From assembly GCA_965221775.1 (NCBI GenBank), contig CBDCSU010000005.1, positions 512,001 to 576,000 of the forward strand: a stretch of 64,000 nucleotides of DNA, in the 5' to 3' direction. A model generated the notes under the pieces. The model did not search any database and was not told the DNA's origin. It was given only the letters and a program-made list of their open reading frames with translations. This document shows, piece after piece, positions 41,895 through 61,708 of the stretch (positions are counted from its first letter, which is position 1; each line of letters opens with the position of its first letter). This DNA is from Candidatus Latescibacterota bacterium. Lineage in GTDB: Bacteria; Latescibacterota; UBA2968; UBA8231. Position numbers and translations under genes: made by a program.

Positions 41895-42788
41895 ATGAGG
41901 AACTGCATTTCAGTGTTTGTCGCTCTCGGCCTGGTCTTCGGCTTGGTCGGGAGCGCCGACGCCCACATCGGCGAGAGGATCTTTCCCCTCTTTGAGCTCG
42001 GCGACGACGACATAGCCGACCTCGACTTCACGGACGACACGGTCGAGGACTGGGAGGATGTGGCCGGCGATGCCACGTACCTGCCCGTCGACTTCTTCGC
42101 CGACCCGACCGTGGGCGACGGCGCCCAGTACGATCCGGCCGACCTCGACTACCGCATCTGGTCGGCCTGGAACAGCTCCACTGGTACGATCTGGTTCGCC
42201 ATGGAGCGCATCGACAACGTCTACTTCGGCAGGGAGTACGACGGCAGCAGCCCGTGGAACTACGAGGCCATCGAGGTCATGCTCGACGGCGACCACACGG
42301 GCGGCGACTACACCGGTTCGGCGAACCCGGACTGGAACGACGAGGAGAAGAAGCTCAACAACAACCGTCACGCGCAGCAGTACATCGGCGTGGCCGACGA
42401 CCCCTCCGGCCGTCACGTCTTCTACCTCGGCGCCGGCGCCGAGTGGGTCAACGACCTGCCCTACGCCGACGGCGGCGGCTCCTCCGTGGGCGACGGCCCG
42501 ACGGTCAGCACCATCGAGCTCTTCGTCACCCCCTTCGACGACCTGATCTGGAACAGCCCTGATGACAGCCAGGCTTCCGACCTGTTCGACGGCAAGCTCA
42601 TCGGCTATCAGATCTCGCTGCCCGACACCGACAAGGACGTTGGCCAGGACCGGGCGTTCCACACCCTGTCCGGTCAGGCCGCGACCTGGCGTTTTGCCGA
42701 GCGCTTTGTCGACGCCCGCCTTATCGGTCTGGATGACACGGCGGTCGAGGGGAACTCCTGGGGCCGCATCAAGGCCGGGATGAAGTAG
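41895..42788 (+). CDS. Secreted CBM9/DOMON-like protein with C-terminal SWGRIK tail (paralog 3)
   Basis: Signal peptide (ADA|H), YDPADLDYRIWSAW, DGDHTGG, VTPFDDLIW, ends AVEGNSWGRIKAGMK. Confidence 0.75.
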   Translation: MRNCISVFVALGLVFGLVGSADAHIGERIFPLFELGDDDIADLDFTDDTVEDWEDVAGDATYLPVDFFADPTVGDGAQYDPADLDYRIWSAWNSSTGTIWFAMERIDNVYFGREYDGSSPWNYEAIEVMLDGDHTGGDYTGSANPDWNDEEKKLNNNRHAQQYIGVADDPSGRHVFYLGAGAEWVNDLPYADGGGSSVGDGPTVSTIELFVTPFDDLIWNSPDDSQASDLFDGKLIGYQISLPDTDKDVGQDRAFHTLSGQAATWRFAERFVDARLIGLDDTAVEGNSWGRIKAGMK

Positions 42789-42821
42789 GGTAACCGGCTT
42801 ATACTTGTTGATTCCCATGTG

Positions 42822-42854
42822 AAGAGAGGGAGGAGCCCATTCCTCCCTCTCTTT
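42822..42854 (+). terminator. Strong hairpin / probable terminator
   Basis: Perfect 13-bp stem AAGAGAGGGAGGA-gcccat-TCCTCCCTCTCTT after the stop at 42788. Confidence 0.65.
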
Positions 42855-42871
42855 GCACTTGAGACGCGCTT

Positions 42872-42887
42872 CGGCACAACGAGTGCT
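42872..42887 (+). promoter_or_regulatory. Candidate sigma-54 (-24/-12) promoter
   Basis: CGGCACAACGAGTGCT = GG-N10-GC, about 110 nt upstream of 42998. Confidence 0.35.
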
Positions 42888-42997
42888 GAACGCGACCTCT
42901 GCAACTGCCGCGCAGTCCCGGATCCGGCTTCCCAGTCTTCGGGGCGTTCTCCGGGCTGCAGTCTTGCTTGTCTACCACAACGGGAGGGAGCAGGGGA

Positions 42998-45490
42998 ATG
43001 AGAATCGGGATCTTCGCCGCGTTGGTCTTTTTGGTGTGGGCGGTCGAGTCCGGCGCCGATTTGCGCCTGTTCTCCATTCCCGGCGACGGCGACACCTGGG
43101 CCGACATCCGGCAGGGGTCGGTCTCCGAGAACACCTACATCGAGCTGGTCGACCTTGAAGGCTACGAGAACGGCATCGGCCCCATCTTCCCGGCCAGATG
43201 GATCCCCGTCCCCGACATCCCCCTCGACCTGACCGCCGAAGAGGCGGGCGCGTCCCTCGACTCCCTGCTCCTCGCCTTCTCCTACCACGTGACCCGCACC
43301 GACGTGGTGGCACCGGAGGACGTGGAGCTGGAGGACGGCACCGTCCTGGCCGCCGGGTCCATCCTGATCCCCCGCTGGAGCCCCTTCCCCCGCAGCCTGG
43401 AAGGGTTGCAGTTGCTGCGCCGGGCCGGCGTCACCGAGATCCACGCCATGATCAACGTGGCCGAGTCCTTCCCCCGCCCCCCGGGCGCCGACAAGTACAA
43501 CAAGAGTCTGAACCTCACCTACCTCGCCATCTGGGAGCGAGCCCTCACCGGCATCCGCCGCCAGGAGGGCCTGGCCCGCGTCTTCGACGGCGACCCCACA
43601 AGCCACTTCGCGCGCATCGACCGGGTGGGACAGGACGTAACCCAGAAGTGGGGGCTCTACGTCGACCTGGGGCACTACTTCCCAGTCCGGCTCTTCCGCC
43701 TCTATCCCAGCCTCGAGGAGCCGGTGCGCGTCTCCGCCTACACCTTCTATCGCGGTCTGCCCGACACCGAGACGGAGATCGCCGGCCTCAGCCTGGAAGA
43801 TCCGAATACGGGGCCCCTGGGTTACCCCTTGTTCAGCAAGATCGGGGACACCTTTCCCACCTGGCTCCCCGAGGCGAGCGTGCCGGTCAACCGGCAGGAC
43901 ACGATCGCCGTGGTCTTCGACCCGCCCGTGCAGATGCGCTACTCGAGGATGGACTTCGAGACTCCGCTGGACTACGACCTCGCCGAGATGGAGTACTACG
44001 CCGACGGTTTCGTGCGCAGCGCGGTGTACACCTCCAACGCCCTGCCCCTGCCCCCGGCGACCCTGGGCCGAATCTCCTGGGACGAGGAGAAGATCGGCGA
44101 TCCCACCCGGTCGAGGATGATCGTCCGAGCGCGCACCGGCTTCACCACCGAGCCCGACGTGCTGTTCCAGATCAACTATCTCGACCGCGAGGTGGAGTGG
44201 CGCCGGGGCGAGGGGAACGCGCTCATCGTCGACAGGCGGCCCGGGTCCGCCACCTGGGGCCAGGAGGTGGACCTGGAATCCAAGGACTTCAACATCGAGG
44301 CGCGGGACATCTGGAGCGCCGCCCTGCCCGAGGACCGTGCCTCCGTCCGCCTGAGCCGCCAGGACTACATCGGGCTTCCGGTGAGCGTGCGCGGCCGCAT
44401 CGAGCCCGATCTCGAGTTCTGGAGCAGCAGGCAGGTGGCCACCAACGGCGACCTGATCCCGGCCCCGAGCGGGCGGCCCTATGTGCAGGTGGAGGTGGCC
44501 TTCACCAGCCAGTCACCGGAGTCGGCCACCATCCTGCGCAACCTCCGCATCGAGTACTCGTCCCCGCAGAGCACCGACGAGCTCTTCGGCGAGATCGCCC
44601 CGGCGGCCGAGGTCATCGCCGGCCGCGACACCTCTTTCGTGCTGGCCCTCCAGGCCTCCCTCGGCGCCGGCAACAGCGGCTTCAACCGGCTGCAGGTCTC
44701 TACCCCGGTGCGCACCGGCGGCATCGAGGAACTGGAGATGGACCTGGGCGACGGCCAGATGCTGCGGTTGGAGAACGAGGGCCGGGCGGAAGGAGAGATC
44801 GCCGCAGGGCGGTTCCGGGAACTGCACGTGGCCGACGATCAGTTCGTCCTCGGCTTCCCCCTCCTCGAGCCGGCGGGCGACGGAGAGGCGCTCGAGGTGC
44901 TCCTCAAGGCCCGATTCCGCTGCCGGGTCATCGACTTCCGCACCCCCTTCACCGCCAGCGTCTTCCTCGATACACTGGGTCTCGATCTGGAGCGCGACTA
45001 CAGCTCCAGGGGGATCCTTGCCCTCGCCGGCGGCGAGAGCGCCCTCGACACCCTGGCCTTCTTCCTGCCTCAGCAGGCGACCAGCCGCGACATCGTCGAC
45101 TTCGCGGCGACGGACAACCTCTCGGACCGCAACTCGCTGATAGTCACCGCCGATATCTCCGCCCAGAGCAGCCAACTGGTGAGCAACATCCGCATCGGGC
45201 CCAATCCCTTCACCCCCAACGGCGACGGCATCAACGACGAGATGACCGTCTCACTCGATGTGCAGCGACTGGTGACGCCGAAGCCCGTCCGTCTGGAGAT
45301 CTTCGATCTCGGCGGCCGGCGCCTGCATCTCATCGAGCGCGAGTTGGCTTCGGGCGGCTATTCCCAGCAGTGGGACGGCCGCGACGCCAACGGGCAGTTG
45401 GTCCCGCCCGGCATCTACATACTCAGCATCTCCACCGATGCCGATGACGCCGGCGATGCCAGGACGCGCACCGTCTCCGTAGCCTACTGA
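42998..45490 (+). CDS. Secreted protein with C-terminal FlgD-Ig/CHU_C-like domain (paralog A)
   Basis: Signal peptide; FDGDPTS, VDLG; C-terminal PNPFTPNGDGINDE..IFDLGGR..WDGRDANGQLVPPGIY..VSVAY. Confidence 0.8.
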   Translation: MRIGIFAALVFLVWAVESGADLRLFSIPGDGDTWADIRQGSVSENTYIELVDLEGYENGIGPIFPARWIPVPDIPLDLTAEEAGASLDSLLLAFSYHVTRTDVVAPEDVELEDGTVLAAGSILIPRWSPFPRSLEGLQLLRRAGVTEIHAMINVAESFPRPPGADKYNKSLNLTYLAIWERALTGIRRQEGLARVFDGDPTSHFARIDRVGQDVTQKWGLYVDLGHYFPVRLFRLYPSLEEPVRVSAYTFYRGLPDTETEIAGLSLEDPNTGPLGYPLFSKIGDTFPTWLPEASVPVNRQDTIAVVFDPPVQMRYSRMDFETPLDYDLAEMEYYADGFVRSAVYTSNALPLPPATLGRISWDEEKIGDPTRSRMIVRARTGFTTEPDVLFQINYLDREVEWRRGEGNALIVDRRPGSATWGQEVDLESKDFNIEARDIWSAALPEDRASVRLSRQDYIGLPVSVRGRIEPDLEFWSSRQVATNGDLIPAPSGRPYVQVEVAFTSQSPESATILRNLRIEYSSPQSTDELFGEIAPAAEVIAGRDTSFVLALQASLGAGNSGFNRLQVSTPVRTGGIEELEMDLGDGQMLRLENEGRAEGEIAAGRFRELHVADDQFVLGFPLLEPAGDGEALEVLLKARFRCRVIDFRTPFTASVFLDTLGLDLERDYSSRGILALAGGESALDTLAFFLPQQATSRDIVDFAATDNLSDRNSLIVTADISAQSSQLVSNIRIGPNPFTPNGDGINDEMTVSLDVQRLVTPKPVRLEIFDLGGRRLHLIERELASGGYSQQWDGRDANGQLVPPGIYILSISTDADDAGDARTRTVSVAY

Positions 45491-45524
45491 GGCGCCCGGA
45501 GAGTACGGAAAGAGAGGATTCGCC

Positions 45525-48500
45525 ATGAAACGGCTTCTGACGTTGGGGGCGTACATCGCCCTGATTTCCCTGCCGGAGGGCCTCATGGCCCAGGCCGGTC
45601 CCGCCTACCGACTGCAGGGCAACTCGATCCGGGTGGACCGGGTCTCCCACTGGAACAACTGGATCTACCAGAACGACCTGGTCACCAGTCTCAACGCGCC
45701 CGTCGGGGGTGTGAACATTCTCGAGGTCGGCGCCGGCGGCCTGCGGCCCGTGTACTTCCGCCGCAACGTCAACGTCGCTCCCACGGCCGCGGACTTCATC
45801 TACAAGGACCAGGTCCGCGCCCAGGGGGATTCGACCCGGGGCGGGACCTCCGCCAAGTCCAACGCGGGCCTGGCCGACAACGTCATCGACGGCGACCTGA
45901 CCACCTTCTGGGAGCCAGCCACGCCCGCCGACTACCCCAGCCGCCTGGACGCTCCCGGCCACTTCCATCTCGACGGCCTGCGCGAGTGGGAGGTGGAGAT
46001 CGACCTCGGCCGGCTGGTCTTCGCCGACAGCCTGACCTTCATCTTCCCCTCGGACCAGTTCGAGGGCGAGTTCCTCGGCCAGCCGGTCAAGGCCTTCGCG
46101 GTCTTCGCCTCCATGGGCGAACGCTTCCCCTTCCCCCTGGGCAACAATCTGCGCTTCACCCTCGTGGCCCAGGCGTCGACGGGCGTTGTCGGGGCGGACG
46201 GCGTGGAGCTGGTGCCCGTGCCCGGCACGGAGGGGAGGTACGCGCAGATGACCTTCGGCCTGGTGCCCCTGGACCGGGCCGACTGGGACCTTGACGGTAT
46301 CCCCGACATCAGCGGGACCTTTCTCCAGTACATCCGCTTCAAGTCCACGGCCTCCGACCTCTGGCGCGACGCCTTCCTCGGGCAGGGCGAGGAGGCCCGC
46401 CTCGCCTATGAAGCGCTGCCCGCCGAGCGGCGCGGCGCCGTCATCTATCAGCGCCTGACGGCCGGCGGCCTGCTCGTGGATCTCCGCGACGACGGCAACC
46501 AGACAGCCGGGGAGAAGCACCAGTCCCTGCCCGAGGCCAAGCGCGGGCCGATCCTGTACTACGTCAAGGAGGTCCCCCGCCTCGCCGAGGTCCAGGTCTG
46601 GACCCGGGGCGACAACTACGCCTACCAGCCCGAGAGCCGCGCCGGGGACTCCTTCGAGCACGGCGGCCTGGGCGCCCCCGAGCTGGCCACCGACGGCAAC
46701 TACGACACCGAGTGGGCGGCCAATACCTGGTCCCCCGTCTACGTCAAGGGCACCGCCTGGTACGACCTGGGCGCCGTGTTCTGGGTGGACAACCTCTCCG
46801 TGGTCAACAAGCGCATCAACCAGAGCAACCACGGCGCCTTTATCGGGCCGGGCATCCTGGTCTCCGACGGCACCCTGCTCAAGCCGGTGTCCATGGAGGA
46901 TCGCGGCGACTTCACCCAGCTCGAAGACGGGCTCCAGTGGCACAACATCATCGGCGAGGAGAAGCTCACCAACCGCACGTCCAAGGTCCGCATCTTCCAG
47001 GAAGATTTCCCCATGCGCAAGATCCGCTTCCTGCAGATCCGCGACCTCGACATCACCGGCGTCAGTTCCGGCCGGTACGGCGCGCTGGCGACCCTGGCCG
47101 AGTTCCAGCTCTTCGGCGAGGGCTACCCGGTCAGCGTCTGGGCCTACTCGCCCCCCATCGCCCTGACCGACTCGCGGGGCGAGTTCGTCCGCAAGACCCT
47201 GCCCCGCATCAGTTGGGAAGGCGACATCCTCGTCCGTGAGACCGACCCCCTCACCGGCGAATCCGTCGAGCGCTTCGAGCCGCTGCACAGCGATCCGGAC
47301 GTCCGCCTCCAGGTGCAGACCCGCACCTCCGACCAGACCGACAGCCTCTTCACCTACTTCGAGGTCGTCTCCGTCGCCGGCAGCGAGGAGCGCACGGAGG
47401 TCACCAAGGACCGCCACGACCAGATCGCCATGGAGTGGGCGGCCTGGGAGTACTGGCAGACCCTGCCCAGCGACCAGCGGCACGCCTCGCGTCACGACGA
47501 CGACGGCGACGGCCTGGAGGACGAGGACCACATCGACTTCCAGGACAACGACGGCGACGGCCTCGTCGACGAGGACGGCAAGAAGCTGCGCCGGGCGCCG
47601 CGCTCGACCTTCGCCAGGGACGGGGAGTTGGCCTTCGTCGGCTGGAGCCCCTGGAGCGAGAGCTACCTGCCGACCAACGGCCTCAGCGAGGCGACGATCA
47701 CCTCCCCCAATCCGCGAAAGTTCATCCAGGTCCGCGTCAACATCCTGTCGGAGAATCCCTTCAAGACGGCCCGCATCCGCAGCCTGCGCATCGACCTGGC
47801 ACCCCCCGTCGCCCTGGAGCTGGTGGGGGAGCTGGCCCTGCTCAGCGACGACGGTGCCGGGCGGGCGCTGACCGATCTCGACGTTCTGCCCACCGACTAC
47901 ACCCCCCCCACCGGCATCGATCCCCTCGAGACCCAGCGGTTCTCCTACTTCATCCGTGCCGCCGGGCCCGACCCGACCGTGCGCGGCGGCTTCGACGAGG
48001 TGCTGATCACCACGCCCCGCGCCGCCCGCCTCACCGGGGTCCGTCTCGGCCGTGTGGAGGTCGCCCGCAGGTCCTCCGCCCTCGACCCGGAGCAGGAGGA
48101 GACCGCGGCGGTGGCCACCCGTTTCGACAACGTCTTCGCCCCCGGCGGCGACGGGGTCTTCCGCAACGAGGCCGGTCAGGTCCTGGAGCAGGTGGCGGCC
48201 GGCGCCGACTCCGTCTGGGTCCGTTTTCCCTCCTCCGTCAACACCGGCCTGCCAGGGGGGGAGCACGCCCTCATCGAGGTGCAGTTCGAGTCGCAGAGCT
48301 TCCGGGAAGGCATCGAGTACACCTCCTTCGTGCGCTCCTCCGACTCGGAGGAGGTGGTCTTCCAGCGGGTGGACATCGACTCCCGGGACGCCACCGAACT
48401 GGTGGCCTCCTCCACGACGAGGGTGGGCCTGGCGGAGCTCGAGGGACCGCTGATCCAGGACGTGGCGCTGGCGCGGGTGTTCACACCCAACGGCGACGGC

Positions 48501-48770
48501 GTCAACGACGAGCTGCCGGTGAGCTTCGCCCTCCTGAAGGTGCTGCAGGAGCGGCCCCTGGAAGTGGAGTTCTTCGACCTGGGCGGCCGCCTCGTCGGCC
48601 GGGGACTGAATACGGCGGGAGCCCCCAAGGCCGGGTACAACACCTTCACCTGGGACGGCCGTGACCCGGGCGGCCGGCTGGTGCCGCCGGGGATCTACCT
48701 GTGCCGGATCAAGGTCGAGGCCGACGCCGAGGACAGCCAGTTCGTGCGGCTCGTCCACGTGGCATATTGA
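45525..48770 (+). CDS. Secreted protein with discoidin-like motifs, DxDGDG repeats and C-terminal FlgD-Ig domain (paralog B)
   Basis: IDGDLTTFW, IDLG, TDGNYDTEW, DDDGDGLEDED/DNDGDGLVDED; FTPNGDGVNDE..WDGRD..LVPPGIY..VHVAY. Confidence 0.8.
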   Translation: MKRLLTLGAYIALISLPEGLMAQAGPAYRLQGNSIRVDRVSHWNNWIYQNDLVTSLNAPVGGVNILEVGAGGLRPVYFRRNVNVAPTAADFIYKDQVRAQGDSTRGGTSAKSNAGLADNVIDGDLTTFWEPATPADYPSRLDAPGHFHLDGLREWEVEIDLGRLVFADSLTFIFPSDQFEGEFLGQPVKAFAVFASMGERFPFPLGNNLRFTLVAQASTGVVGADGVELVPVPGTEGRYAQMTFGLVPLDRADWDLDGIPDISGTFLQYIRFKSTASDLWRDAFLGQGEEARLAYEALPAERRGAVIYQRLTAGGLLVDLRDDGNQTAGEKHQSLPEAKRGPILYYVKEVPRLAEVQVWTRGDNYAYQPESRAGDSFEHGGLGAPELATDGNYDTEWAANTWSPVYVKGTAWYDLGAVFWVDNLSVVNKRINQSNHGAFIGPGILVSDGTLLKPVSMEDRGDFTQLEDGLQWHNIIGEEKLTNRTSKVRIFQEDFPMRKIRFLQIRDLDITGVSSGRYGALATLAEFQLFGEGYPVSVWAYSPPIALTDSRGEFVRKTLPRISWEGDILVRETDPLTGESVERFEPLHSDPDVRLQVQTRTSDQTDSLFTYFEVVSVAGSEERTEVTKDRHDQIAMEWAAWEYWQTLPSDQRHASRHDDDGDGLEDEDHIDFQDNDGDGLVDEDGKKLRRAPRSTFARDGELAFVGWSPWSESYLPTNGLSEATITSPNPRKFIQVRVNILSENPFKTARIRSLRIDLAPPVALELVGELALLSDDGAGRALTDLDVLPTDYTPPTGIDPLETQRFSYFIRAAGPDPTVRGGFDEVLITTPRAARLTGVRLGRVEVARRSSALDPEQEETAAVATRFDNVFAPGGDGVFRNEAGQVLEQVAAGADSVWVRFPSSVNTGLPGGEHALIEVQFESQSFREGIEYTSFVRSSDSEEVVFQRVDIDSRDATELVASSTTRVGLAELEGPLIQDVALARVFTPNGDGVNDELPVSFALLKVLQERPLEVEFFDLGGRLVGRGLNTAGAPKAGYNTFTWDGRDPGGRLVPPGIYLCRIKVEADAEDSQFVRLVHVAY

Positions 48771-48796
48771 GAGAGAGCAAACAAAGGGAGGTATCT

Positions 48797-51547: not shown

Positions 51548-51550
51548 GAG

Positions 51551-52315: not shown

Positions 52316-52340
52316 CAGGTTTCCTTCGGACCATCACCTG

Positions 52341-52382
52341 ACTGCGCGGTGCCGCCGCAAGGAGGCGCCGCGCAGTTTCTTT
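52341..52382 (+). terminator. Rho-independent terminator
   Basis: ACTGCGCGGTGCC..GCAA..GGCGCCGCGCAGT stem followed by TTCTTT. Confidence 0.7.
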
Positions 52383-52390
52383 GACAGGAC

Positions 52391-54085
52391 ATGCCATCGA
52401 TGAGGTGGAGATCTCTCAGCCTGGGTCTGTGCGCGGCCCTCCCGGCGTGCGGCCCCCAGGCCGGGCCCGGCGATCCCGCGGCGGTACTGGCCACCGTCTC
52501 CGGGCGGCCGATCACCGCCCTGGATCTGGAAGAGTACGAGCGGACCCTGCCCGCCTATCTGCGATCGAAGGAGGAGGGAGCGGCCGCCCATGGAGAGCAC
52601 CTCCGGAGCCTCGTCGACAGGGAGCTGGTCCTGGGCGAGGCCGGCCTTCGAGGGCTGGACCGGCACCCGGAGGTGGAGAGCGCCCTCTCGGCGATGGTCG
52701 ATGAACGCGCCGCAGAAGAGCTGGCCAGGAGGCTGGTCGACGCCCGCCTCTCGGTCACCGAAGAGGAACTGCGCACCTTCTACGAGGAGGAGTCGCTGGG
52801 CTGGCAGGTCTGGCCCGCCCACATCCTCTCCGCCACCGAGGAGGAGGCCCGCGAGGTCATCCGCCTGCTGTCGGAGGGAGCCGACTTCGGCGGGCTGGCA
52901 CGGGAGCGCTCCCTGGCCGGCGACGCGGACAAGGGGGGCGATCTGCAGGCCTTCTTCGGGGCCTCCGATGCCGTGCCCACCCTGAGGGAGGGCGCCTTCC
53001 ACCTCGATGAAGGGCAGGTGAGCGAGCCGATCCGCACCTTCGAGGGCTACGAGGTGGTCAAGGTGCTGCGGAAACGGCGGCTGCCTTACGGGCAGCTGCG
53101 GCAGGAGATCCATCAGCGCCTGATGACGCGCAAGGGCTGGGAGCGGCGGACCGCCATCATCGACTCGCTCAAGGAGGCTCGCGGCCTGCGCCTCCATCGC
53201 CAAGTGGTGCCGGCCGTTTTCGACGGGCTGCACGGACGGGAGGTCGACCCGGGCCAGGAGCAGGCCCCCCTGATCGAGTACGAGGGGGGCGCCGTCACCG
53301 TCCTCGACGCCACGGAGGGGCTGCGCGACCTGGACGAGGAGGCCCTGCCCCCCGACACCGCGGCCGTCGTCCGCGCTCTCGAGGAGAGGTTGATCCCCGA
53401 TTCCCTGCTGGTTCTAGAGGCCCGGGCCCGCGGGCTGACCGAAGGGCCGGGCATGGTGGAGTGGCGGGAGCAGGAGCGCCTGGGCCTGATGGCCGCACGC
53501 CTGCGCAGCGACGTGGTGAAGGGCCGGGCGGAGGTGACCGAAGAAGAGGTGAGGGATCACTACGAGCGGAACCTGGGGTCCTACACTTCCCTGCCCGGCT
53601 TCATCCGGATGACGGAGGTCCTCCTCGACACCCGCGCGCAGGCCGATTCGATCCTCGAACGGGCGCGGGCCGGCGAAGGGCTGGAGGTGCTCGCCGCCCG
53701 CCACTCCGTGCGTCCCGGCATGAAGCCGGTGGGGGGGCACACCTTCGGCGACAGCGGCAGAGTCACCATCCGCCCCCTCTACAAGTCGCCGTACCGCACC
53801 GCCTTCGGAGACCGCAACACCGAGGACGTGGGCGTGCTCCACGGTCCGCTGGAGGTGCAGGGGAGGTACAGCGTCTTCCGCCTGGATCAGCCTTTCGAGA
53901 AGGAGGCCGTGCCCTTCTGGCGGCTGCGCCGGCGCATCGCCGGGCAGATCCTCAGGCGGCGGGAGGCCGTCCTCTTCGAGAGCTTCCTCGATTCGCTGCG
54001 CCGCGTCCATGCCGCCGAGGTGGTGATCGACGAAGAAACCCTCTCCGGTTACGCGGCCGCCCGTCAGAGCCTCGATCCCCCGTAA
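52391..54085 (+). CDS. Parvulin-type peptidyl-prolyl isomerase lipoprotein (SurA/PrsA-like, two PPIase modules)
   Basis: LPAC lipobox; AHIL, GADFGGLARERS, GGDL, GQVSEPIRT..GYEVVKV. Confidence 0.85.
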   Translation: MPSMRWRSLSLGLCAALPACGPQAGPGDPAAVLATVSGRPITALDLEEYERTLPAYLRSKEEGAAAHGEHLRSLVDRELVLGEAGLRGLDRHPEVESALSAMVDERAAEELARRLVDARLSVTEEELRTFYEEESLGWQVWPAHILSATEEEAREVIRLLSEGADFGGLARERSLAGDADKGGDLQAFFGASDAVPTLREGAFHLDEGQVSEPIRTFEGYEVVKVLRKRRLPYGQLRQEIHQRLMTRKGWERRTAIIDSLKEARGLRLHRQVVPAVFDGLHGREVDPGQEQAPLIEYEGGAVTVLDATEGLRDLDEEALPPDTAAVVRALEERLIPDSLLVLEARARGLTEGPGMVEWREQERLGLMAARLRSDVVKGRAEVTEEEVRDHYERNLGSYTSLPGFIRMTEVLLDTRAQADSILERARAGEGLEVLAARHSVRPGMKPVGGHTFGDSGRVTIRPLYKSPYRTAFGDRNTEDVGVLHGPLEVQGRYSVFRLDQPFEKEAVPFWRLRRRIAGQILRRREAVLFESFLDSLRRVHAAEVVIDEETLSGYAAARQSLDPP

Positions 54086-54098
54086 GCGAGGCTCATCC

Positions 54099-56120
54099 GT
54101 GCGCCTGAGGCTCGCGGCGCTGCTCGTCGGCCTGGGACTCGTGGTGCTCCTGGAGGGCGCACTCCGGCTGGTCCCGGCTCTCCGCCCTCCGGCCTTCACC
54201 CTCCGCCTCGCCACGGTGGAGGACCGAACCCTCAACGCCGTCAATCCGGACTACCCGCAACGCTTCTTCGCCGGCGTTGCGGGGGACCTTCCCGCGGGCG
54301 GCGTCCGCATGACCCCCCGGCCCTACGTCGAACCCGCACCGCCGGAGGCCCTGCGGGTGCTCTTCGCCGGCGGGTCGACGGTGCAGGGCTTCCCCCACCC
54401 CAAGCGCCTGTCGGCGCCCTCCTGCCTCCAGAAGATGCTCCGGGACCTGCACCCCGGACGCCACATCGAGGTCTACAACGCCGGCATCACGGCCGCCTCG
54501 AGCTTCGTCGTCGCCCGCGCCGTGGAGGACGGTGTCCGGGCCCTGGAGGCCGACCTCGTGGTGGTCTACACGGGCCACAACGAGCTCTACGGGGTGTACG
54601 GGGCCGCCTCCCTCGCCCAGGGCGGCCGCGCCTCGTGGAGCAAGAGGCTCCACTACGGGGTGATGCAATGGCGGATGACCCGCCTGGTGGTCGGGCTCGT
54701 GGGGGCCTTCGGCACCGACGAGCCTCAACCCGCGGACCTGCTGGAGACCATGTCGCGCACGGGCTCCGTCCCCGTGGACGATCCGAGACGGGAACGGGCC
54801 GCCGCCAACCTGGAGGGCAACCTGCGGGACGTGGCCGCCTTCTGCCGGGAGCGGGGCATCCCCCTGGTGCTCTGCACCCTCACCAGCAACGAGCGCGGCT
54901 TCGCGCCGGGAGGGGCCGCGCCCCCTCCCGGCGAGGACGGCGCGGCGTACCTGGACCTGCTGCAGGCCGGCAGCCGCGGCCAGGCCTCCGCCGCCGCCCT
55001 GGAGGCGCTGGAAGAGGCCCGCGAGCTGCGCGAGGACGACGCCTGCCTGCACTTCCTGCGCGGCCATCACCTGGAGCGCCTTGGGGACGGGTTCGCGGCG
55101 CGGCGGGCCTACCTGCAGGCCCGCGAGCTGGATACCCGGCCCTGGCGGGCGACGGCCCGGCTCAACGAGGTCGTGCGCCGGGTTGCGGCCGAGGAGGGGG
55201 CGCTCCTGGCCGAGGTGGAAGCGCGGTTCCTGGATCACAGCCCGGCCGCCGGTGTTGGCTGGGAGCTGATGGCCGACCACCTGCACCCCACCGCCGCCGG
55301 GCAGGCGCTGCTCGCCCGTGCCGTGGCAGCGGCCCTGCGGGAGGCGCCTCAGCCCTGGGGATTCCCGCGGGAGAGGCTCCAGCGGCTCCAGGCCGACGAC
55401 CGCTATCGCCAGCGCCTCGGAGACCTGCCCGTCGAGCAACTCGCCGTCATCCGGGCCATGGCCCGCCTCTTCGGATCGCCCCCCATGGACGAGGGCAACG
55501 AGAGCCGCGCCGAGGACCTCCGCCGGCAGGGCGACAGCCTCATGGCCGGGCTGAGCCCCGGCGAGCGGCGCGGGGTCGAGCGCTGGGTGCGGGGAGAAGG
55601 GCCGGACCTGCTGGCCCTGAACGTGGCCGAGGCCCTGTTCTCGGCGCGGGAATACCAGCGGGCCCGGGCCTACTACCAGGCCGCCCGCCTGGAGCAGCCT
55701 TTCACGATCTGGAGCGACTTGTGGGCCGCCCTGCGCTGGGTCCGCTGCGGTCGGCTGCTCGGCCGCCCTCCGGACGAAGCGGACAGGGCGGCCCTCGAGA
55801 CCGTGCTGGACCGCCAGCGTTTCCTGGCCCGGGCCCCCGGCTTCTCCCAGGGGCTGCGGGACTTCATCGAGGGCTACGCCCGCCACCTTCTGGGGCAAAG
55901 AGCCGGCGCCCTGGCCGCCCTCGAAGCGGCCATCCGGGATGAAGAGACACGGCGCAGGTTCTTCCCCGAGCTGCTGCAACTGCTCGTGATCGAGCTGATC
56001 GCCGCCGGCCGCCCCGGGGACGCCGAACGCTACGCGCTCCAGGTCTCCGCGGAGCTGGGCCAGGAGGCTTTCGGACGCGCCCTGGTGGAGCGCATCCGGG
56101 CAGGTGCGGCCCCGCGCTGA
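54099..56120 (+). CDS. SGNH/GDSL-hydrolase-like protein with TPR helices
   Basis: GGSTVQG (Ser), NAG, YTGHNELYG, DHLHPT; TPR-like AYLQARELD. Confidence 0.78.
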   Translation: MRLRLAALLVGLGLVVLLEGALRLVPALRPPAFTLRLATVEDRTLNAVNPDYPQRFFAGVAGDLPAGGVRMTPRPYVEPAPPEALRVLFAGGSTVQGFPHPKRLSAPSCLQKMLRDLHPGRHIEVYNAGITAASSFVVARAVEDGVRALEADLVVVYTGHNELYGVYGAASLAQGGRASWSKRLHYGVMQWRMTRLVVGLVGAFGTDEPQPADLLETMSRTGSVPVDDPRRERAAANLEGNLRDVAAFCRERGIPLVLCTLTSNERGFAPGGAAPPPGEDGAAYLDLLQAGSRGQASAAALEALEEARELREDDACLHFLRGHHLERLGDGFAARRAYLQARELDTRPWRATARLNEVVRRVAAEEGALLAEVEARFLDHSPAAGVGWELMADHLHPTAAGQALLARAVAAALREAPQPWGFPRERLQRLQADDRYRQRLGDLPVEQLAVIRAMARLFGSPPMDEGNESRAEDLRRQGDSLMAGLSPGERRGVERWVRGEGPDLLALNVAEALFSAREYQRARAYYQAARLEQPFTIWSDLWAALRWVRCGRLLGRPPDEADRAALETVLDRQRFLARAPGFSQGLRDFIEGYARHLLGQRAGALAALEAAIRDEETRRRFFPELLQLLVIELIAAGRPGDAERYALQVSAELGQEAFGRALVERIRAGAAPR

Positions 56121-56150
56121 CCGTACCGCCGGCAGCCACTCCAGGCCGCC

Positions 56151-58244
56151 TCAGTCCCGGCCGGTACCCATCCGTCGATAGACTTCCTCGAGCAGGGCCT
56201 GAGCCCGGGGTGAAGGGCCCCTGGCCAGCACCTGCCGCAACCGCTCCACGGCCGCGCCGTGGCGTCCCTCTTCCGTGTCCATGAGGGCCAGGTTGACGTG
56301 GGCCTCCGGGTTTTCCGGGTCCAACTCCAGGGCCTCCAGGAAACGGGTCCGAGCCCTCTGGGTGCGCCCGTCGAGCAGGTGCAGGGCGCCGATGGCGACC
56401 AGGGCCTCGGGACGCCTCTCCAGGGACAGGGCGCGGCCATAGGAGTCGAGGGCGGCCTCCCCTCGCCCGGACTGGTGCAGGGCGCGCCCCAACTGGTAGT
56501 GGATCCGGAAGTCCCGCGGTCGGGAAGCCAGGGCCCGCCGGAAGTGCTCGGCCGAGGCCGTGTAGCGCCCCTGGCCGTAGAGGAGGCGGGCGTACTCGTA
56601 GTTGGCCATGCCGGACCCCGGATCCAGCTCCAGGGCGCGCACCAGGGCGGCCCGGGCCTGCTGCGGCCGGCCCGCGTCCAGGTGGATCCGGGCGAGAAGC
56701 ACGTGGGTGTCCACCCGCCGGGGATTCTCCGCCAGGGTGGCCCGGGCCGTCCGGCCGCTCTCCCCCAGGCGTCCCTGGTGGTAGCAGGCCACGGCCAGAT
56801 TGTGGCGCGCGTAGTTGTATCCCGGGGCCAGCTCCAGGGCCCGCCGGGAGTGGGTCTCGGACAGTGCGTACTCCCCCTTGCGCAGGTAGACCTCGCCCAG
56901 GTCGAAGTGGAGCTGGGCGTCCGCGTCGGTGGGGGCCGCCCTCGCCAGGTTGCACAGGACCAGGAGAGCAGCCAGGGGCACCCCCAACCTCGCCGCCTCC
57001 GGCCAGGATCTCCGGCGCAGGCTGCGGAGCAGACGCCAGGCCGCCAGGGCGGCGAAGACGATCAGCACGGGCAGGACCGGCATGCGGTAACGGGCGGCGG
57101 GGAAGAACAGCACGACGGAAGCCGTATAGCCGAGAACGTAGAGCCGCAGCAGGGCCGTTGGATCTCCGCGGATGCGGAGGCTCAGCCCCAGGCCGAGCAG
57201 GCCCAGGGGTGCGACCACTCCGAAGGGCATGGAGAGGTGCCGGTCCCACAGCAGCAGACCGAGGATCCAGGAGTGCTGCCGGGCGTAGTAGATGTCCTGG
57301 TTGCGCTTGACCTCCGGGCCGCTCCAGAAGTCCCGGGTCTTCCTTGCGAGGAGACCGAGGTAGTCGAGGGGATGGGAGGCGATCCAGGCCAGGCCCTTGC
57401 GCAGGAACCAGGAGGACTTCGCCGCCGCGGTCACGTGGCCCGCCCGCGCCGGCTCGGAGACCATCTCCTCCCATTCCACCCCGGGCCGCAGGGCGACGGT
57501 GCGCTCGTAGTCGGCGTTGTTGCCGATGTAGAAGTTGACGCCGCCATTGGCCGAGACCAGGACCAGGCCCGGCTCGGCGGCCCAGTTGCGCACGGTGACG
57601 GGGAGGATCACCAGGAGGGCGCAGCCCGCGAAGGGCACCAGGGCCCCCGCGGAGCGCCGCCGCCACAGGTGCCAGGCGCAGAAGAGCGCCACGAAGAGGA
57701 GGATGTTGGGGCGGGCGAGGGCGGCCAGCCCGGCCGTCACGCCGGCCAGGCCCCAGTCCCGGCTGCGCTCCCGGTCCTGGGCCGCCAGGAGGAGCTGGAG
57801 AAGCAGGAGGTCCAGGAATACCTCCAGGGGCACGGCCAGCAGCTCTCCCTCGAAGTAGAGGAAGGTGCCGCACAGGGCGGCCGCCCAGCCGGCGATCCGC
57901 GCCGCCGGCTCGCCGAAGGCGCGGCGGGCGAGGCCGTACACCAGCAGACAGGAGAGGGCCCCCAGCAGGGCGTGGACGAGACGGATGCCGACGAAGTACG
58001 AGCCCGGCATGAGCCAGCAGACGAAGGCCAGCAGGTAGATGTAGAGGGGCGCCTGCCAGTAGGGCTCGGCACCGCCCCGGAGATTGCCGGCGGCGATGGC
58101 CAGGGCCTGGTCGAGGAAGGTCCGGGCGTCGACGACGGGCGCGTCGAAGAACGGGCTGGCGCCGTGCTGGTGGATGTAGCCCAGCCTCAGCGCCAGCGCC
58201 GCCAGCAGGAGGCAGCCGGCAAAGAGACGGGAGCCGCGGCTCAT
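56151..58244 (-). CDS. Glycosyltransferase family 39 (PMT/ArnT-like, GT-C) with C-terminal TPR repeats
   Basis: VDARTF, QAPLY.YLLA, many TMs, LARPN, VTVRN, NFYIGNN, RYRMP; ALELxP TPR repeats. Confidence 0.85.
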   Translation of the reverse strand: MSRGSRLFAGCLLLAALALRLGYIHQHGASPFFDAPVVDARTFLDQALAIAAGNLRGGAEPYWQAPLYIYLLAFVCWLMPGSYFVGIRLVHALLGALSCLLVYGLARRAFGEPAARIAGWAAALCGTFLYFEGELLAVPLEVFLDLLLLQLLLAAQDRERSRDWGLAGVTAGLAALARPNILLFVALFCAWHLWRRRSAGALVPFAGCALLVILPVTVRNWAAEPGLVLVSANGGVNFYIGNNADYERTVALRPGVEWEEMVSEPARAGHVTAAAKSSWFLRKGLAWIASHPLDYLGLLARKTRDFWSGPEVKRNQDIYYARQHSWILGLLLWDRHLSMPFGVVAPLGLLGLGLSLRIRGDPTALLRLYVLGYTASVVLFFPAARYRMPVLPVLIVFAALAAWRLLRSLRRRSWPEAARLGVPLAALLVLCNLARAAPTDADAQLHFDLGEVYLRKGEYALSETHSRRALELAPGYNYARHNLAVACYHQGRLGESGRTARATLAENPRRVDTHVLLARIHLDAGRPQQARAALVRALELDPGSGMANYEYARLLYGQGRYTASAEHFRRALASRPRDFRIHYQLGRALHQSGRGEAALDSYGRALSLERRPEALVAIGALHLLDGRTQRARTRFLEALELDPENPEAHVNLALMDTEEGRHGAAVERLRQVLARGPSPRAQALLEEVYRRMGTGRD

Positions 58245-58290
58245 GGCCTCGGGCCCCTCTGCCGGCGCCTACGGACCCGGGATCAGCGGC

Positions 58291-60939
58291 TCAATAAGCG
58301 ACGGAGAGGACGCCGGAGTGCCGGGCGGAGGTGTCGTCGGAGTCGACGGCGAACCGGTAGAGATAGATGCCGGGGGGCACGAGCAGGCCGTTCTCGTCGC
58401 GGCCGTCCCAAGTGAACCGCAGGGCGCCCGCCGCCGAGTCCCCGGCCTCGATCCGGGCCAGACGGCGGCCGGACAGGTCGTGGATGTCGAGCTCCACCTC
58501 GACCTCCTCGGTGACGAGGAAGAGGTCGAAGGAGAACACGATCTCGTCGTTGATGCCGTCGCCGTTGGGGGTGAAGGGATTGGGGCTGACGAGGGGCGCC
58601 GGGACGACGCTGCCGATGTCCTGGACCACGACGAGGCGGGAGTTGGTGCCCACGTCGGGAGTGGCGTCCCCGTCCTCGGTGGGCTGGGGGATCGCGGTGT
58701 CTCCGAGCTCGTCGTTCCACAGGGAGCTGAGGAACTGCTGGGAGCCCCGGAAGAGCCGGGAGCGGAAGACGACCTCGATGTTCTCGCCGAACTGGAAGTG
58801 CCCGGCACCCATGGAAGGCAGCTTGATCGACAGCTTGTGAGCCCCGGTGACCGGGTCGGTGACGACGGACTGGGCGAACTGCCCCAGGCTGTCGGGGCGG
58901 CCCTCCGCCGGGGCGAGACGGGCGGGATGGACGCCGAGGAGAGGATCGTCGCCGCTGCCGGCGGCGATCTCGACCCAGGCCTGCCCGTCGATACGCAGGG
59001 TGTCGATGCGGCTGTCGATGCTGGGAACGTCGATCTCGATCCGGTTGAAGGCCATCGGGTCCGCCGGCCCGAAGAGCGGCCGGAGGTAGTAGCGGAAGAG
59101 GGCCTCCTCGCCCAGGGGGACGCCGGACGGGAAGATCTCGGCCACCACGCCCCCGGAGACGAGGGGCGTGTCGTAGTCGAACTCGATGAAGTCGAGGAGG
59201 GCGGCGCCGTGCTGGGGGCCGTCGAAGTAGACGCGGAACTGGATGTAGCGGGTGCCTCCGGGCAGGGGCAGCTGGACGCCGGCGTCGCCCCACTCGGACT
59301 CGGGCAGGCTCTCGTCGATGAGGCCGTCCGCCAGCTTGAAGGGCGCCGACCAGTAGCTCCAGCCCCGTCTCCCGTCGGCGCCCACGTCGACGCCCAGCTC
59401 GTTGTAGCGCAGCTCGCGCTGGGGGATGCGGCCGTCGGTGAGCTTGATCCAGGCGAACAGGTCGAGGGGATTGCCGTTATCGTCGCGGTCGTCCTCGAAG
59501 CCGGGGCCCAGCCGGCGGGCGTAGACATGGGTGTCGAGCGAGTTGCCGACCCGGAACTGGATGCGCACGTCGCCGCCGAGGCCGTCGCGGCGGCCCTTCC
59601 AGCGGACCTTGCCCCAGTTGACCTGCTCGCCGGGAAGATCCAGGTCGAACTGGCTCTCGTAGGCCTCGCGCTCGCCGCCGGAGAACTGCTCGATCTCGCG
59701 GTCGTAGCGTCGGGCGCGCGGCGTGGGGACCCCCACGTCGATGACCTCGGAGGTGTACTGGCCGTCGATGGCGAAACCGTCGCCGAAGTGGCCGAGCTCG
59801 GCGATCTGGCTGAGCTTGCCCTCGGGATCGATGGAGTAGATGTCGACGCGCCCGGCCACATAGTCGGGGAAGCGGAGGTTCTTGACCACCGGGGTGAGTT
59901 GGTCGCGGGTGGTGGAGACCAGGGTCCTGTTGGCCTGGATGGTCTCGGCATGGAGGTTGATCGAGGTCTGGTCGCCGTAGCGGATGTAGTAGTTGGCGAT
60001 GGTGCCCCCCGGAAGGGTGGGATGGGGCCGGAAGGTGATGCGGTTGAGGTAGTAGTAACCCATCAGGTTCATCGCGATTCCGCCGCGGCCGTACTTGGTG
60101 CTGTTGAACTCGGTGCGGAGGTTGCCGTCCACCGCCCTCTCGGCGTCCTCCCGGCGGATGACCCCCGCCGCCGCCCAGTAGTCGCCCGAGACGGGGTCGG
60201 AGACCTCGCGGCGGAAGCCGTACTCGCTCGGCACCACCATGTAGGGCCGCTGGGTGTCCTTGCCGGGAATGACCCCGCCGAACTCGCCGGCCTTGTAGCG
60301 CTGGTTGAGCATGTAGGCGAGGTTGCGCAGGCTGTCGAGGCGGATCGGCCGGATCCAGGTGGTCACGCCGCCGCCGTGCCCGGGCATATCGGGATCCTCG
60401 TCCACAAGCCCGTCACCGTCGTCGTCCACCCCGTTGACGGGATCCTCGTTGAGGCGGCCGTCCCAGTCGTCGTCATACTGGCTGTACAGGCCATCCTCGT
60501 TGAGCCGGCCGTCGCCGTCGTTGTCGATCTGCGGATCGGGACCGTCTTCGTTGATGAGCCCGTCGATGTCGTTGTCGATCAACTCGGGCGGATCCTCGTC
60601 GATGAGACCATCGCCGTCGTCGTCGAGGTTGTTGTCCACGTCCTCGTTGAGCAGGCCGTCACCGTCGTTGTCGACCTGCGGGTCCTCGGGGTCCTCGTTG
60701 ATCGTGCCGTCGTCGTCGTTGTCGATGAGGTCGACGGGGTCCTCGTCGATGAGGCCGTCGCCGTCGTCGTCGGCGAGGAGCTCCACGGCCCAGCTGCGTC
60801 CCAGGTCGAGGCGGCCGCTCACCGGCCTCAGGATCCATGGGTGGGTGCCGTCGCCGACGCGCCAAGTCTTGATCTCCGCCCAGCCGTCGCCGGCCAGGAG
60901 CAGGGCGCCCAGCAGCGCCAGGGTCGGTAGCCTGATCAT
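58291..60939 (-). CDS. Secreted protein with 8 acidic DxDxDG repeats and C-terminal FlgD-Ig domain (paralog C)
   Basis: Signal peptide; repeats; AVDGNLRT; SPNPFTPNGDGINDE..WDGRDENGLLVPPGIY..LSVAY. Confidence 0.8.
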   Translation of the reverse strand: MIRLPTLALLGALLLAGDGWAEIKTWRVGDGTHPWILRPVSGRLDLGRSWAVELLADDDGDGLIDEDPVDLIDNDDDGTINEDPEDPQVDNDGDGLLNEDVDNNLDDDGDGLIDEDPPELIDNDIDGLINEDGPDPQIDNDGDGRLNEDGLYSQYDDDWDGRLNEDPVNGVDDDGDGLVDEDPDMPGHGGGVTTWIRPIRLDSLRNLAYMLNQRYKAGEFGGVIPGKDTQRPYMVVPSEYGFRREVSDPVSGDYWAAAGVIRREDAERAVDGNLRTEFNSTKYGRGGIAMNLMGYYYLNRITFRPHPTLPGGTIANYYIRYGDQTSINLHAETIQANRTLVSTTRDQLTPVVKNLRFPDYVAGRVDIYSIDPEGKLSQIAELGHFGDGFAIDGQYTSEVIDVGVPTPRARRYDREIEQFSGGEREAYESQFDLDLPGEQVNWGKVRWKGRRDGLGGDVRIQFRVGNSLDTHVYARRLGPGFEDDRDDNGNPLDLFAWIKLTDGRIPQRELRYNELGVDVGADGRRGWSYWSAPFKLADGLIDESLPESEWGDAGVQLPLPGGTRYIQFRVYFDGPQHGAALLDFIEFDYDTPLVSGGVVAEIFPSGVPLGEEALFRYYLRPLFGPADPMAFNRIEIDVPSIDSRIDTLRIDGQAWVEIAAGSGDDPLLGVHPARLAPAEGRPDSLGQFAQSVVTDPVTGAHKLSIKLPSMGAGHFQFGENIEVVFRSRLFRGSQQFLSSLWNDELGDTAIPQPTEDGDATPDVGTNSRLVVVQDIGSVVPAPLVSPNPFTPNGDGINDEIVFSFDLFLVTEEVEVELDIHDLSGRRLARIEAGDSAAGALRFTWDGRDENGLLVPPGIYLYRFAVDSDDTSARHSGVLSVAY
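60391..60771 (-). repeat. Coding tandem repeat: 8 x D(D/N)DxDGxx(D/N)ED
   Basis: DDDGDGLIDEDP, DNDDDGTINEDP, DNDGDGLLNEDV, DDDGDGLIDEDP, DNDIDGLINEDG, DNDGDGRLNEDG, DDDWDGRLNEDP, DDDGDGLVDEDP. Confidence 0.85.
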
Positions 60940-60958
60940 CGCGCTCCTCCGTCGATTA

Positions 60959-61708
60959 TCAATTCGCCGAAAGCGTCCGCGTGCCGTCCGGGTAGAGGCG
61001 GCCCACTTCGCGCTCGAACCGGTAACGGATGTCCACCGTCTCCAACGGCTCGTTGCGGTGGTCGAAGCGGAGCACCGTGTCGTGGATGGTCACCTCGACC
61101 CGCGAGACATCGGGATGGAGCACCGGAAAGACGAGGTAGCCCTCGAGCTCCTGGCCGCTGAAGACGATCTCCTTCCGGAACATGTTGCGCCGGGCCAGGT
61201 CGATGCGCTCCTGGTAGCGGTTGTACTCGTTGCCCCGGTAACCGAGGACGTAGGCCCGGTAGTAGCTCTTCAACTGACTCACTTCGAGGGTCCAGTAGCG
61301 GCGGCCGTTGTCGGCCGTCAACTCCACCTGCGTCGGGTCGATCTGGACCCTCGGGAAGGCGTAGTTCTTGACGTTCAGGTGAAAGACCGTGAAACGGGGC
61401 TGGCCCTCCGCACCCTCCCCGAGCTCGGTGTCGCCGAAGGTGAAGGGGTTCGTCGACTCCGGTCCGGAGCGGGAGTGGGAGGCGAACTGGCGGTTGAGCT
61501 CGGCGTCGGTGAGCGGGCGGAGCCTCACCTCGAGGCGGCCCTGCGTGTACGTCACCGCCCCGTCGTCGGCCACGGCCACCGCTCTCTGCTGCCCGTCGGA
61601 AGGCCGCAGTGGGCTGGCGTAGTAGGTGTATCCACAGCCGCTGCCGAGGAGGATGATGAGGATGGCGGCGGCCGGCGGCAGGCTCTTATTCATTAGCATA
61701 GCTCCCAT
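60959..61708 (-). CDS. Lipoprotein (paralog 2)
   Basis: Lipobox GSGC; VADDGAVTYTQGRLEVRLRPLTDAELNRQF; FEREVGRLYPDG. Confidence 0.8.
   Translation of the reverse strand: MGAMLMNKSLPPAAAILIILLGSGCGYTYYASPLRPSDGQQRAVAVADDGAVTYTQGRLEVRLRPLTDAELNRQFASHSRSGPESTNPFTFGDTELGEGAEGQPRFTVFHLNVKNYAFPRVQIDPTQVELTADNGRRYWTLEVSQLKSYYRAYVLGYRGNEYNRYQERIDLARRNMFRKEIVFSGQELEGYLVFPVLHPDVSRVEVTIHDTVLRFDHRNEPLETVDIRYRFEREVGRLYPDGTRTLSAN

Follow-up and report, generated by a model that had tools for sequence, protein, structure and literature searches.

In the Bacteroidota, type B cargo of the T9SS (type IX secretion system) binds PorP-like barrels for anchorage (PMC9143113), and the cargo gene is followed by a gene for a PorP/SprF-like shuttle or anchor, such cargo bypassing PorV (PMC12618676). 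Named pairs are SprB-SprF, PG1035-PorP and Fjoh_3952-Fjoh_3951 (PMC9143113, PMC12618676); SprF and its close homologs carry a Cys-x-Cys in the periplasmic C-tail (PMC12635249), and the T9SS is found across the FCB superphylum (PMC11205867). Here we describe a cassette encoded at 41895..61708 of a 64,000-nt stretch (the window) from the genome of a Candidatus Latescibacterota bacterium (contig CBDCSU010000005.1). It comprises ten genes, seven on the + strand and three converging on the - strand (Table 1), among them three paralogs (A, B and C) with T9SS-type C-terminal domains (CTDs), a 916-aa protein that models as an outer-membrane barrel, and a CBM9-like protein with a C-terminal SWGxIK tag, called the SWGRIK protein below. 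At a probability of roughly 45%, we propose that the tail-bearing proteins are T9SS cargo given to cognate giant barrels, in a manner resembling type B cargo and PorP/SprF, and that together they form a Ca-binding, carbohydrate-binding surface platform.

A, B and C resemble each other at 26.7% identity over 558 aa for the A-C pair (E = 1.3e-27), 28.1% over 398 aa for A-B (E = 3.6e-22) and 31.8% over 296 aa for B-C (E = 3.9e-21). Judged by sequence comparison they are paralogous well past the tail, with a similarity of the bodies far above chance. An annotation made earlier from the letters of the window (hereafter the first-pass annotation) had given all ten genes at the coordinates we find, together with the terminator and the shared tail; the internal scaffold it proposed for the three proteins, with AExxx(F/Y)x(D/E)G(F/Y) and DG(D/N)xxT, is legible in all three translations, as is the common terminus FTPNGDGxND...VAY. 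Its suggestion that the tails are T9SS-type sorting domains also holds up, as they match the C-terminal domain of PorU and the FlgD Ig fold. The CHU_C family (PF13585) scores 31.8 for A, 29.6 for C and 24.0 for B, and FlgD_ig scores 43.5 for C, 27.9 for B and 25.1 for A, the gathering cut-off being 27 for both; the modeled tail of A superimposes on the solved FlgD Ig domain 3osv_A with a root-mean-square deviation of 1.7 over 71 columns. TIGR04183, the model of type A sorting domains (cut-off 23 bits), found no match in A, B or C at E <= 0.01.

A census of the tails among 3242 open reading frames (ORFs) of the 5.4-Mb genome, filtered by third-position GC (GC3), identified 85 C-terminal CTDs, which fall into 58 of class 1, with the pattern PNPFN... 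and the ending LLR or LLK, and 27 of class 2, with the pattern N[GA]D[GL]xND and the ending Y or W. A, B and C belong to the latter. All of the 20 class-1 ORFs that were scanned (20/58) match TIGR04183, 18 of them at or over the cut-off, and none matches TIGR04131, the model of type B domains. By these profiles the class-2 CTD is distinct from ordinary T9SS type A tails. Among class-2 ORFs of other genomes, 59/60 match CHU_C or FlgD_ig. In a set of 57 class-2 tails, the final residue is aromatic in at least 90%. Another genome encodes a class-2-tailed cassette protein (L085:7625-9868) that has NHL/teneurin-type beta-propeller repeats in place of the usual body, and the tail is therefore attachable to other modules.

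Class-2 genes are linked to the barrel. This genome contains about 20 barrel genes (16 merged intervals) in about 10 loci, where they cluster with class-2 paralogs, peptidyl-prolyl isomerases (PPIases), fusions of a GT-C glycosyltransferase with tetratricopeptide repeats (GT-C/TPR), lipoproteins, SGNH proteins and SWGRIK-tail genes; in most of these loci A-like, B-like and C-like members all occur. Of the class-2 ORFs, 26/27 lie no more than 7 kb from a barrel gene, vs 3/58 of the class-1 ORFs. The only class-2 ORF with no barrel on its contig is G000:C4:821826-823949 (G000 denotes this genome in coordinate labels), whose last 95 residues and those of G000:C5:168796-170751 are identical but for one position; either a recent duplication or an artefact of assembly or binning could account for it (the contamination estimate of the genome is 7.75%). 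The three class-1 genes near barrels (G000:C3:5332-7374, G000:C5:369091-371079 and G000:C6:6945-8837) all end in TLLK, and their cassettes hold the most divergent barrels (~27% identity).

The same linkage is seen elsewhere. Among species representatives, 548/580 candidate stretches encode a relative of the barrel, and the best 80 loci were searched 10 kb to each side with our own profile hidden Markov models (HMMs). A class-2 tail is present in 79/80 loci and a class-1 tail in 2/80; in the sole locus lacking a class-2 tail the sequence begins 157 nt before the barrel. The class-2 gene ends 18-407 nt before the first aligned residue of the barrel in 77/80 loci; the window has this layout as well, the barrel gene starting at 48797, directly downstream of the end of B at 48770. 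The other partners are the SWGRIK family (60 of the 80 loci), the PPIase (60), GT-C/TPR (42, a count that may be too high as the HMM includes the TPR), the lipoprotein (32) and SGNH (22). The order SWGRIK-A-B-barrel-lipoprotein-PPIase-SGNH is kept in about 20 of the 80 loci, and minus-strand C with lipoprotein 2 occurs in only the two closest. Of the lineage-specific module of cargo, barrel and lipoprotein envisaged by the first-pass annotation, the union of cargo and barrel is borne out as lineage-specific and conserved, and the lipoprotein is optional. That annotation had also named what would speak against it, namely barrel and lipoprotein families with no link to FlgD-tail genes elsewhere, or a characterised system matching the whole set; barrel and FlgD-tail genes are linked in 79/80 loci, and no characterised system matches the set.

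Across 121 Latescibacterota genomes, each at least 85% complete, the barrel is found in 69, with 9 families positive and 4 negative. The class-2 tail profile matches 89/121 genomes at E <= 1e-12, and a value of E <= 1.2e-17 is reached in each of the 69 that have the barrel; the SWGRIK family is found in 67/121, all of them barrel-positive. T9SS parts are present in 69/69 barrel-positive genomes, 68 with SprA and the remaining one, which has no SprA match, with PorU at 603 bits. Gene order and distribution among genomes both show the barrel, the class-2 tail and the CBM9-like tagged protein occurring together.

The 916-aa protein matches no Pfam family at E <= 5, and neither NCBIfam nor the PDB yielded a sequence match; its family profile found nothing in the PDB at E <= 1, and a profile of a distant subfamily nothing meaningful at E <= 10. 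Its AlphaFold2 (AF2) model, built from 46 sequences (pLDDT 70.6, pTM 0.72), shows about 27 (26-28, counted from the DSSP list) strands of membrane length at residues 113-247, 420-503 and 631-914; the seventh strand is followed by a beta-rich insert (273-420), and the stretches 17-113 and 539-625 are of low confidence. Fold searches with Foldseek and VIA returned outer-membrane barrels only. Foldseek placed the Deinococcus SlpA/SDBC structures at the top (8ae1_A, E = 5.5e-9; also 8agd_A and 7zgx_A), all with TM-scores of at most 0.24, and VIA gave ties at Z 10-14 (FhaC, TamA, FimD, LptD, MtrB, SlpA, porins), from which no family stands out. The protein models as a giant barrel of the outer membrane, and its family has no name. 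At least 920 homologs were found, all unnamed or "hypothetical" and none with a Pfam domain, labeled as Latescibacteria/-ota or, probably wrongly, as Gemmatimonadetes; an exhaustive search of 1.84 billion cluster representatives with the barrel profile gave 1006 matches at E <= 1e-3, of which 334 reach E <= 1e-30. Across 60 diverged barrels, column identity in 20-residue windows is highest at 561-640 (0.67-0.81), 161-180 (0.76) and 61-120 (0.65-0.69); the low-confidence stretches of the model largely coincide with these most conserved ones. The first of the conserved stretches contains an invariant EF-hand-like loop, D607-x-N-x-N-G-x-x-D-x-x-E618.

The arrangement of class-2 gene and barrel gene fits the Bacteroidota rule of type B cargo and PorP/SprF, and we therefore rank first the reading in which the cassette encodes T9SS cargo and its cognate barrel. 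The likeness extends to the C-terminal beta-sandwich sorting domain, which matches CHU_C (over the cut-off in A and C) and carries the FxPNGDGxND motif, to the barrel gene directly 3' of the cargo gene, and to a genome that also encodes type A cargo along with SprA, PorU and a PorV-like protein. SprA was found here at 612 bits in a 2192-aa frame; two genes pass the PorU cut-off, and 48 further ORFs match only the last ~80 positions of the PorU model; the PorV-like gene (148 bits, under the cut-off) adjoins one of the PorU genes. According to this scheme A, B and C would be exported by Sec, perhaps with folding help from the parvulin PPIase of the cassette, and the class-2 tail would take them through the SprA translocon and deliver them not to PorV/PorU but to the 916-aa barrel, which would retain them at the surface. 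The product could be a Ca2+-stabilised carbohydrate-binding platform to which B (of discoidin type), the CBM9-like protein and the beta-sandwich arrays of A and C would contribute, with the GT-C/TPR and SGNH enzymes probably modifying the platform or its glycan surroundings and the lipoproteins as presumed accessories. DxDxDG-type loops, of which C has eight (residues 57-183) and B two (658-685), and the EF-hand-like loop of the barrel make the Ca-binding put forward in the first-pass annotation plausible. As to the discoidin-type module, F5/8 type C matches occur in 17/60 class-2 ORFs of other genomes at E <= 1e-3, mostly around residues 100-250, and 9/60 pass the gathering cut-off; the nine are 858-1009 aa long, a B-like length, and the 17 are 858-1153 aa long except for two sub-cut-off matches (697 and 660 aa). 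A complex prediction for barrel residues 27-916 with the tail of B gave scores of 0.22 and 0.08 vs a mark of 0.32, which speaks neither for nor against the pairing.

A number of observations weigh against this reading. The barrel is rejected as a member of PorP/SprF (PF11751), having no Pfam family at E <= 5, and, as the window barrel contains no cysteine at all, it lacks the Cys-x-Cys tail of SprF; likewise no Cys is found in the last 15 residues of 46 orthologs (0/46) or in the last 20 of 60 diverged barrels (0/60). A search of the genome with PF11751 gave no match, the controls of that search being likewise silent. The barrel is also about three times larger than PorP/SprF. The tails of A, B and C fall below the TIGR04131 cut-off of 35 (A 21.4, C 21.0, B none). 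The discoidin-type signal of B itself (residues 111-136, PF00754 / PF22633) is a miss, at 19.7 bits vs a cut-off of 28.2; the SWGRIK protein of the window has no Pfam CBM9 match; and the AF2 model of A is poor (pLDDT 54, pTM 0.32), its body not being modeled, for which reason we leave the folds of the body unnamed. Foldseek matches of that model outside the CTD were set aside (TM ~0.1). As for the T9SS, SprA is present in 120/121 genomes and its co-occurrence with the cassette is therefore non-discriminating. The models of GldL, GldM and GldN found nothing in this genome, with controls that were also silent, so that absence of the T9SS motor genes is not concluded, and the GldK model found only weak matches of FGE-sulfatase type. 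Those at G000:C5:351883-352362, G000:C6:2566474-2566833 and G000:C6:2593172-2593570 (36-64 bits vs a cut-off of 350) adjoin lipoprotein or class-2 genes in three other cassettes. Furthermore, the genomes of the phyletic sample are related and not independent samples, and the E-value gap that sets the barrel-positive genomes apart from the 20 barrel-negative genomes with a class-2 match (the latter only at E >= 6.9e-15) was picked after seeing the data. Finally, the reading draws on sequence, models and gene context.

The cassette differs from the type B/PorP-SprF pairs also in its content and distribution: the barrel has 26-28 predicted strands, the cargo and barrel genes are accompanied by a PPIase, the SWGxIK-tagged CBM9-like protein, lipoproteins and GT-C/TPR, and there are about 10 loci per genome, in Latescibacterota and not in Bacteroidota. 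Alternatively, the cassette could be a self-contained device for export and assembly, independent of SprA, with the barrel as translocon or usher and the PPIase as dedicated chaperone, i.e. a new system made from T9SS parts. A large barrel interrupted by an inserted domain beyond one of its early strands, a folding factor encoded alongside it and Ig-like subunits with a conserved C-terminal aromatic residue are shared with the ushers FimD/PapC; each cassette has its own barrel or barrels, PPIase genes are frequent in the loci, class-2 tails end in aromatic residues, and neither the GldL, GldM and GldN models nor their controls matched anything. FimD/PapC, FhaC/TamA and LptD are indeed among the fold matches, but these are tied with many other barrel families (FimD/PapC at Z 10.3-13.4) and none is favoured, while no Usher (PF00577), POTRA or ShlB-type Pfam match was found in the barrel at E <= 5. 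Unlike the ushers, the cassette shows no match to a PapD-type chaperone, its foldase being a parvulin, and its barrel has no C-terminal periplasmic domains. The class-2 tail is homologous to T9SS CTDs, including that of PorU itself, and each of the 69 barrel-positive genomes searched has T9SS parts. We consider such an independent device unlikely.

We are equally doubtful that the cassette is the counterpart, in this phylum, of the polysaccharide utilization loci (PULs), in which case the CBM9-like and discoidin-type proteins would capture glycans and the barrel would import them. Both it and the SusC/SusD PULs occur as repeated, diverged cassettes (here the ~20 barrel genes mentioned above) with a large outer-membrane barrel, a lipoprotein and surface proteins of carbohydrate-binding type, and SusC and other TonB-dependent chains are among the fold matches (Z 8.7-10.9), tied with barrels in general; the SusC matches score under many unrelated barrels, and the barrel has no Plug or TonB_dep_Rec match in Pfam at E <= 5, so there is no sign of a TonB-dependent receptor. 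The Pfam scan of the 20-kb locus found no glycoside hydrolase or other carbohydrate-active enzyme, no SusD, no TonB/ExbBD and no inner-membrane transporter, and the partners of the barrel bear T9SS-type tails, not lipid anchors.

It is very unlikely that the barrel is a structural envelope protein of SlpA type, serving as base or tether of an S-layer whose glycosylated layer would be made by A, B and C and modified by the GT-C and SGNH enzymes encoded in the locus: although Deinococcus SlpA (8ae1, 7zgx, 8agd), also a very large outer-membrane barrel, is the best Foldseek match and gives the longest structural alignments (424-432 residues, Z 12.3-12.7), and 7/25 distant relatives of the barrel match SlpA_C (PF21620) at 16.7-30.2 bits, under the cut-off of 35, the TM-scores are low, neither of two family profiles picks up an SlpA chain from the PDB, the window barrel has no SlpA_C or SLH match at E <= 5 and no coiled coil, and at least 10 diverged copies per genome would be unusual for a structural tether. 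The seven relatives with SlpA_C matches (P0389, P0390, P0400, P0407, P0418, P0444 and P0461) share the profile region 231-322.

Three tests bear on the fold of the SWGRIK protein. Of its 30 Atlas neighbours 19 belong to CBM9_1 clusters; Pfam CBM9_1 (PF06452) matches 3/39 of its relatives (best E = 3.7e-5); and the family profile matches the CBM9-2 module of Thermotoga maritima Xyn10A (1i82_A) at E = 2.7e-5, over profile positions 59-159. The three are concordant and weakly suggest a CBM9-like fold. Unlike CBM9 modules, the protein stands alone with no enzyme, misses the Pfam model and carries a TAVE..SWGxIK tag. The motif [ST]WGx[IVL]K is found in the last 25 residues of 58/61 ORFs of the SWGRIK family in other genomes. 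Of the ORFs of this genome, 35/3242 have W[GAS]x[IVL]K within their last 22 residues, vs 0/2813 internal control windows; 12 of the 35 belong to the SWGRIK-family set, and among the 23 other small proteins, many of which also carry TAV(E)...SWGxIK, four matched the SWGRIK protein of the window by tblastn. The tag (window 42740-42788) looks like a candidate address or docking signal. About 30 kb upstream in the window there are tandem CBM9-like genes with a SWARIK tail (9703-10887 and 10915-11835) and no barrel near them, followed 3' by a 494-aa ORF with no Pfam match (11837-13321).

A wider generalization would be that Latescibacterota own a modular pathway of surface display, in which dozens of cassette-specific barrels serve as exit ports and anchors, each with its own foldase, and two tags (the class-2 CTD and TAVE..SWGxIK, the latter found also at the end of about 20 other small exported proteins here) address the cargo. 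This is improbable as it stands; if true, it would be a new outer-membrane protein-sorting system, PUL-like in its role for this phylum. The new secretion system, the filament or surface layer and the glycosylated cargo that the first-pass annotation had imagined are putative readings of the gene content. We found no paper joining Latescibacteria with the T9SS, nor one on this cassette, and the available sections of the Latescibacteria genome paper (PMC4454575) report porins, TonB import and a type VI secretion system and do not describe it. Latescibacterota are widespread and uncultured, here sponge-associated; the cassette, which accounts for ~20 genes for barrels and 27 for class-2 proteins in this 5.4-Mb genome, takes a large share of it, and its barrel family comes to about 1000 clusters when grouped at 50% identity, all without a name. 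The proposed scheme would extend the rule of type B cargo plus cognate barrel beyond the Bacteroidota to a much larger barrel, accompanied by another candidate address tag; should the mechanism prove right, it would offer a way into how these bacteria bind glycans of hosts or algae, and would give structural studies a new class of anchor in the outer membrane. New in the present analysis are the split between type A and class-2 tails, the phyletic co-distribution, the transcript hints described below, the EF-hand-like loop and the SlpA lead.

Table 1. Genes and transcription signals of the cassette locus (window positions)
Feature	Position	Strand	Remarks
Secreted CBM9-like SWGRIK-tail protein, 297 aa	41895-42788	+	signal peptide; tag TAVEGNSWGRIKAGMK at C-terminus
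Terminator-like hairpin then TTTG, 3' of CBM9-like gene	42822-42851	+	pattern scan
Paralog A, 830 aa	42998-45490	+	signal peptide, beta-rich body, class-2 CTD nt 45200-45487
Paralog B, 1081 aa	45525-48770	+	sub-threshold discoidin-type motif, two DxDxDG loops, class-2 CTD nt 48471-48767
Predicted outer-membrane beta-barrel, 916 aa, unnamed family	48797-51547	+	AF2 model and fold searches
Lipoprotein 1, 254 aa, unnamed family	51551-52315	+	lipobox LLAG|C
Intrinsic terminator, end of A-B-barrel-lipoprotein unit	52340-52383	+	hairpin 52340-52375 then TTTCTTTG
Parvulin PPIase, 564 aa, SurA/PrsA-like	52391-54085	+	PF00639, PF13145; possible lipobox LPAC
SGNH/GDSL hydrolase-fold protein, membrane-anchored, 673 aa	54099-56120	+	PF13472
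GT-C glycosyltransferase (PMT_2) + TPR fusion, 697 aa	56151-58244	-	PF13231, TPR_2
Paralog C, 882 aa	58291-60939	-	eight DxDxDG loops, class-2 CTD nt 58294-58584
Lipoprotein 2, 249 aa	60959-61708	-	paralog of lipoprotein 1

The window has a GC content of ~70%, and coding ORFs were separated from shadow ORFs by third-position GC, which is 0.86-0.94 in the genes of the locus. The SWGRIK gene, whose ORF opens at 41736, was given its start at M54 (41895), where the signal peptide begins; A, whose ORF is open from 42968, was given the ATG at 42998 that its orthologs use.

The roles of the remaining genes are inferred from family membership only. The parvulin PPIase matches PF00639 at 52 bits (cut-off 21.7) and PF13145 at 49.7 bits, and its best NCBIfam matches are of PrsA/SurA type, under their cut-offs. 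The SGNH protein matches PF13472 at 46.2 bits (cut-off 32.9), while its C-terminal half matches no family; the TPR that the first-pass annotation had ascribed to this protein was not detected by the Pfam scan at E <= 0.01. For the GT-C protein (PF13231, 49.3 bits vs 26.1; TPR_2, 102.7 bits vs 27) the earlier label "GT39-TPR" is borne out as to the TPR and the PMT_2 family, but finds no support for GT39 beyond PMT_2. Lipoproteins 1 and 2 are 47% identical over 255 aa (E = 1.8e-66). None of the 337 homologs of lipoprotein 1 has a Pfam domain, and the family obtained no assignment from Atlas, the PDB profile search or Pfam; the leads considered and rejected are weak, DUF4352 in 3/24 relatives at E >= 0.013 and an Atlas score of 0.80.

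The hairpin at 52340-52375 has a folding energy of -40.3 kcal/mol (z = -4.6), and 0/200 shuffled sequences fold as well. The pattern scan for terminators overall returned 7 sites vs 7.2 expected and missed this strong hairpin. Sequences near-identical to the locus are found in sponge and marine metagenomes of 10 studies, with 6 runs being RNA libraries; for the latter the data are contigs, not reads, so that the transcript readings that follow are only weak hints. In four metatranscriptome runs, from 3 studies, contigs extend over the SWGRIK gene, the three paralogs A, B and C, the barrel and both lipoproteins, and the longest pieces differ little (e.g. 5 differences in 1904 nt). The bins of the SWGRIK gene (41736-42815) have a mean word depth of 160-392 in three of the four runs vs 2-52 in their neighbours, and an RNA-library contig of run X16 ends at 42815, just before the hairpin at 42822-42851, a weak hint that the CBM9-like gene is abundantly transcribed on its own. 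Contigs of all four runs end at 52305-52350, at the terminator, which hints, again weakly, that A, B, the barrel and lipoprotein 1 form one transcription unit. The stretch 52392-58385 (PPIase, SGNH, GT-C) is hardly covered by contigs in runs X15-X17, from which nothing is concluded.

No match to the sigma-54 promoter pattern lies inside the locus, and the single match in the window is no more than expected by chance. Elsewhere in the window, a 2473-aa ORF (25005-32426) has a coding-type GC3 of 0.95 and no Pfam family at E <= 1e-5. The locus is adjoined by rpoN (61769-63283) and by a gene encoding an LptB-like ABC ATPase (63429-64000).

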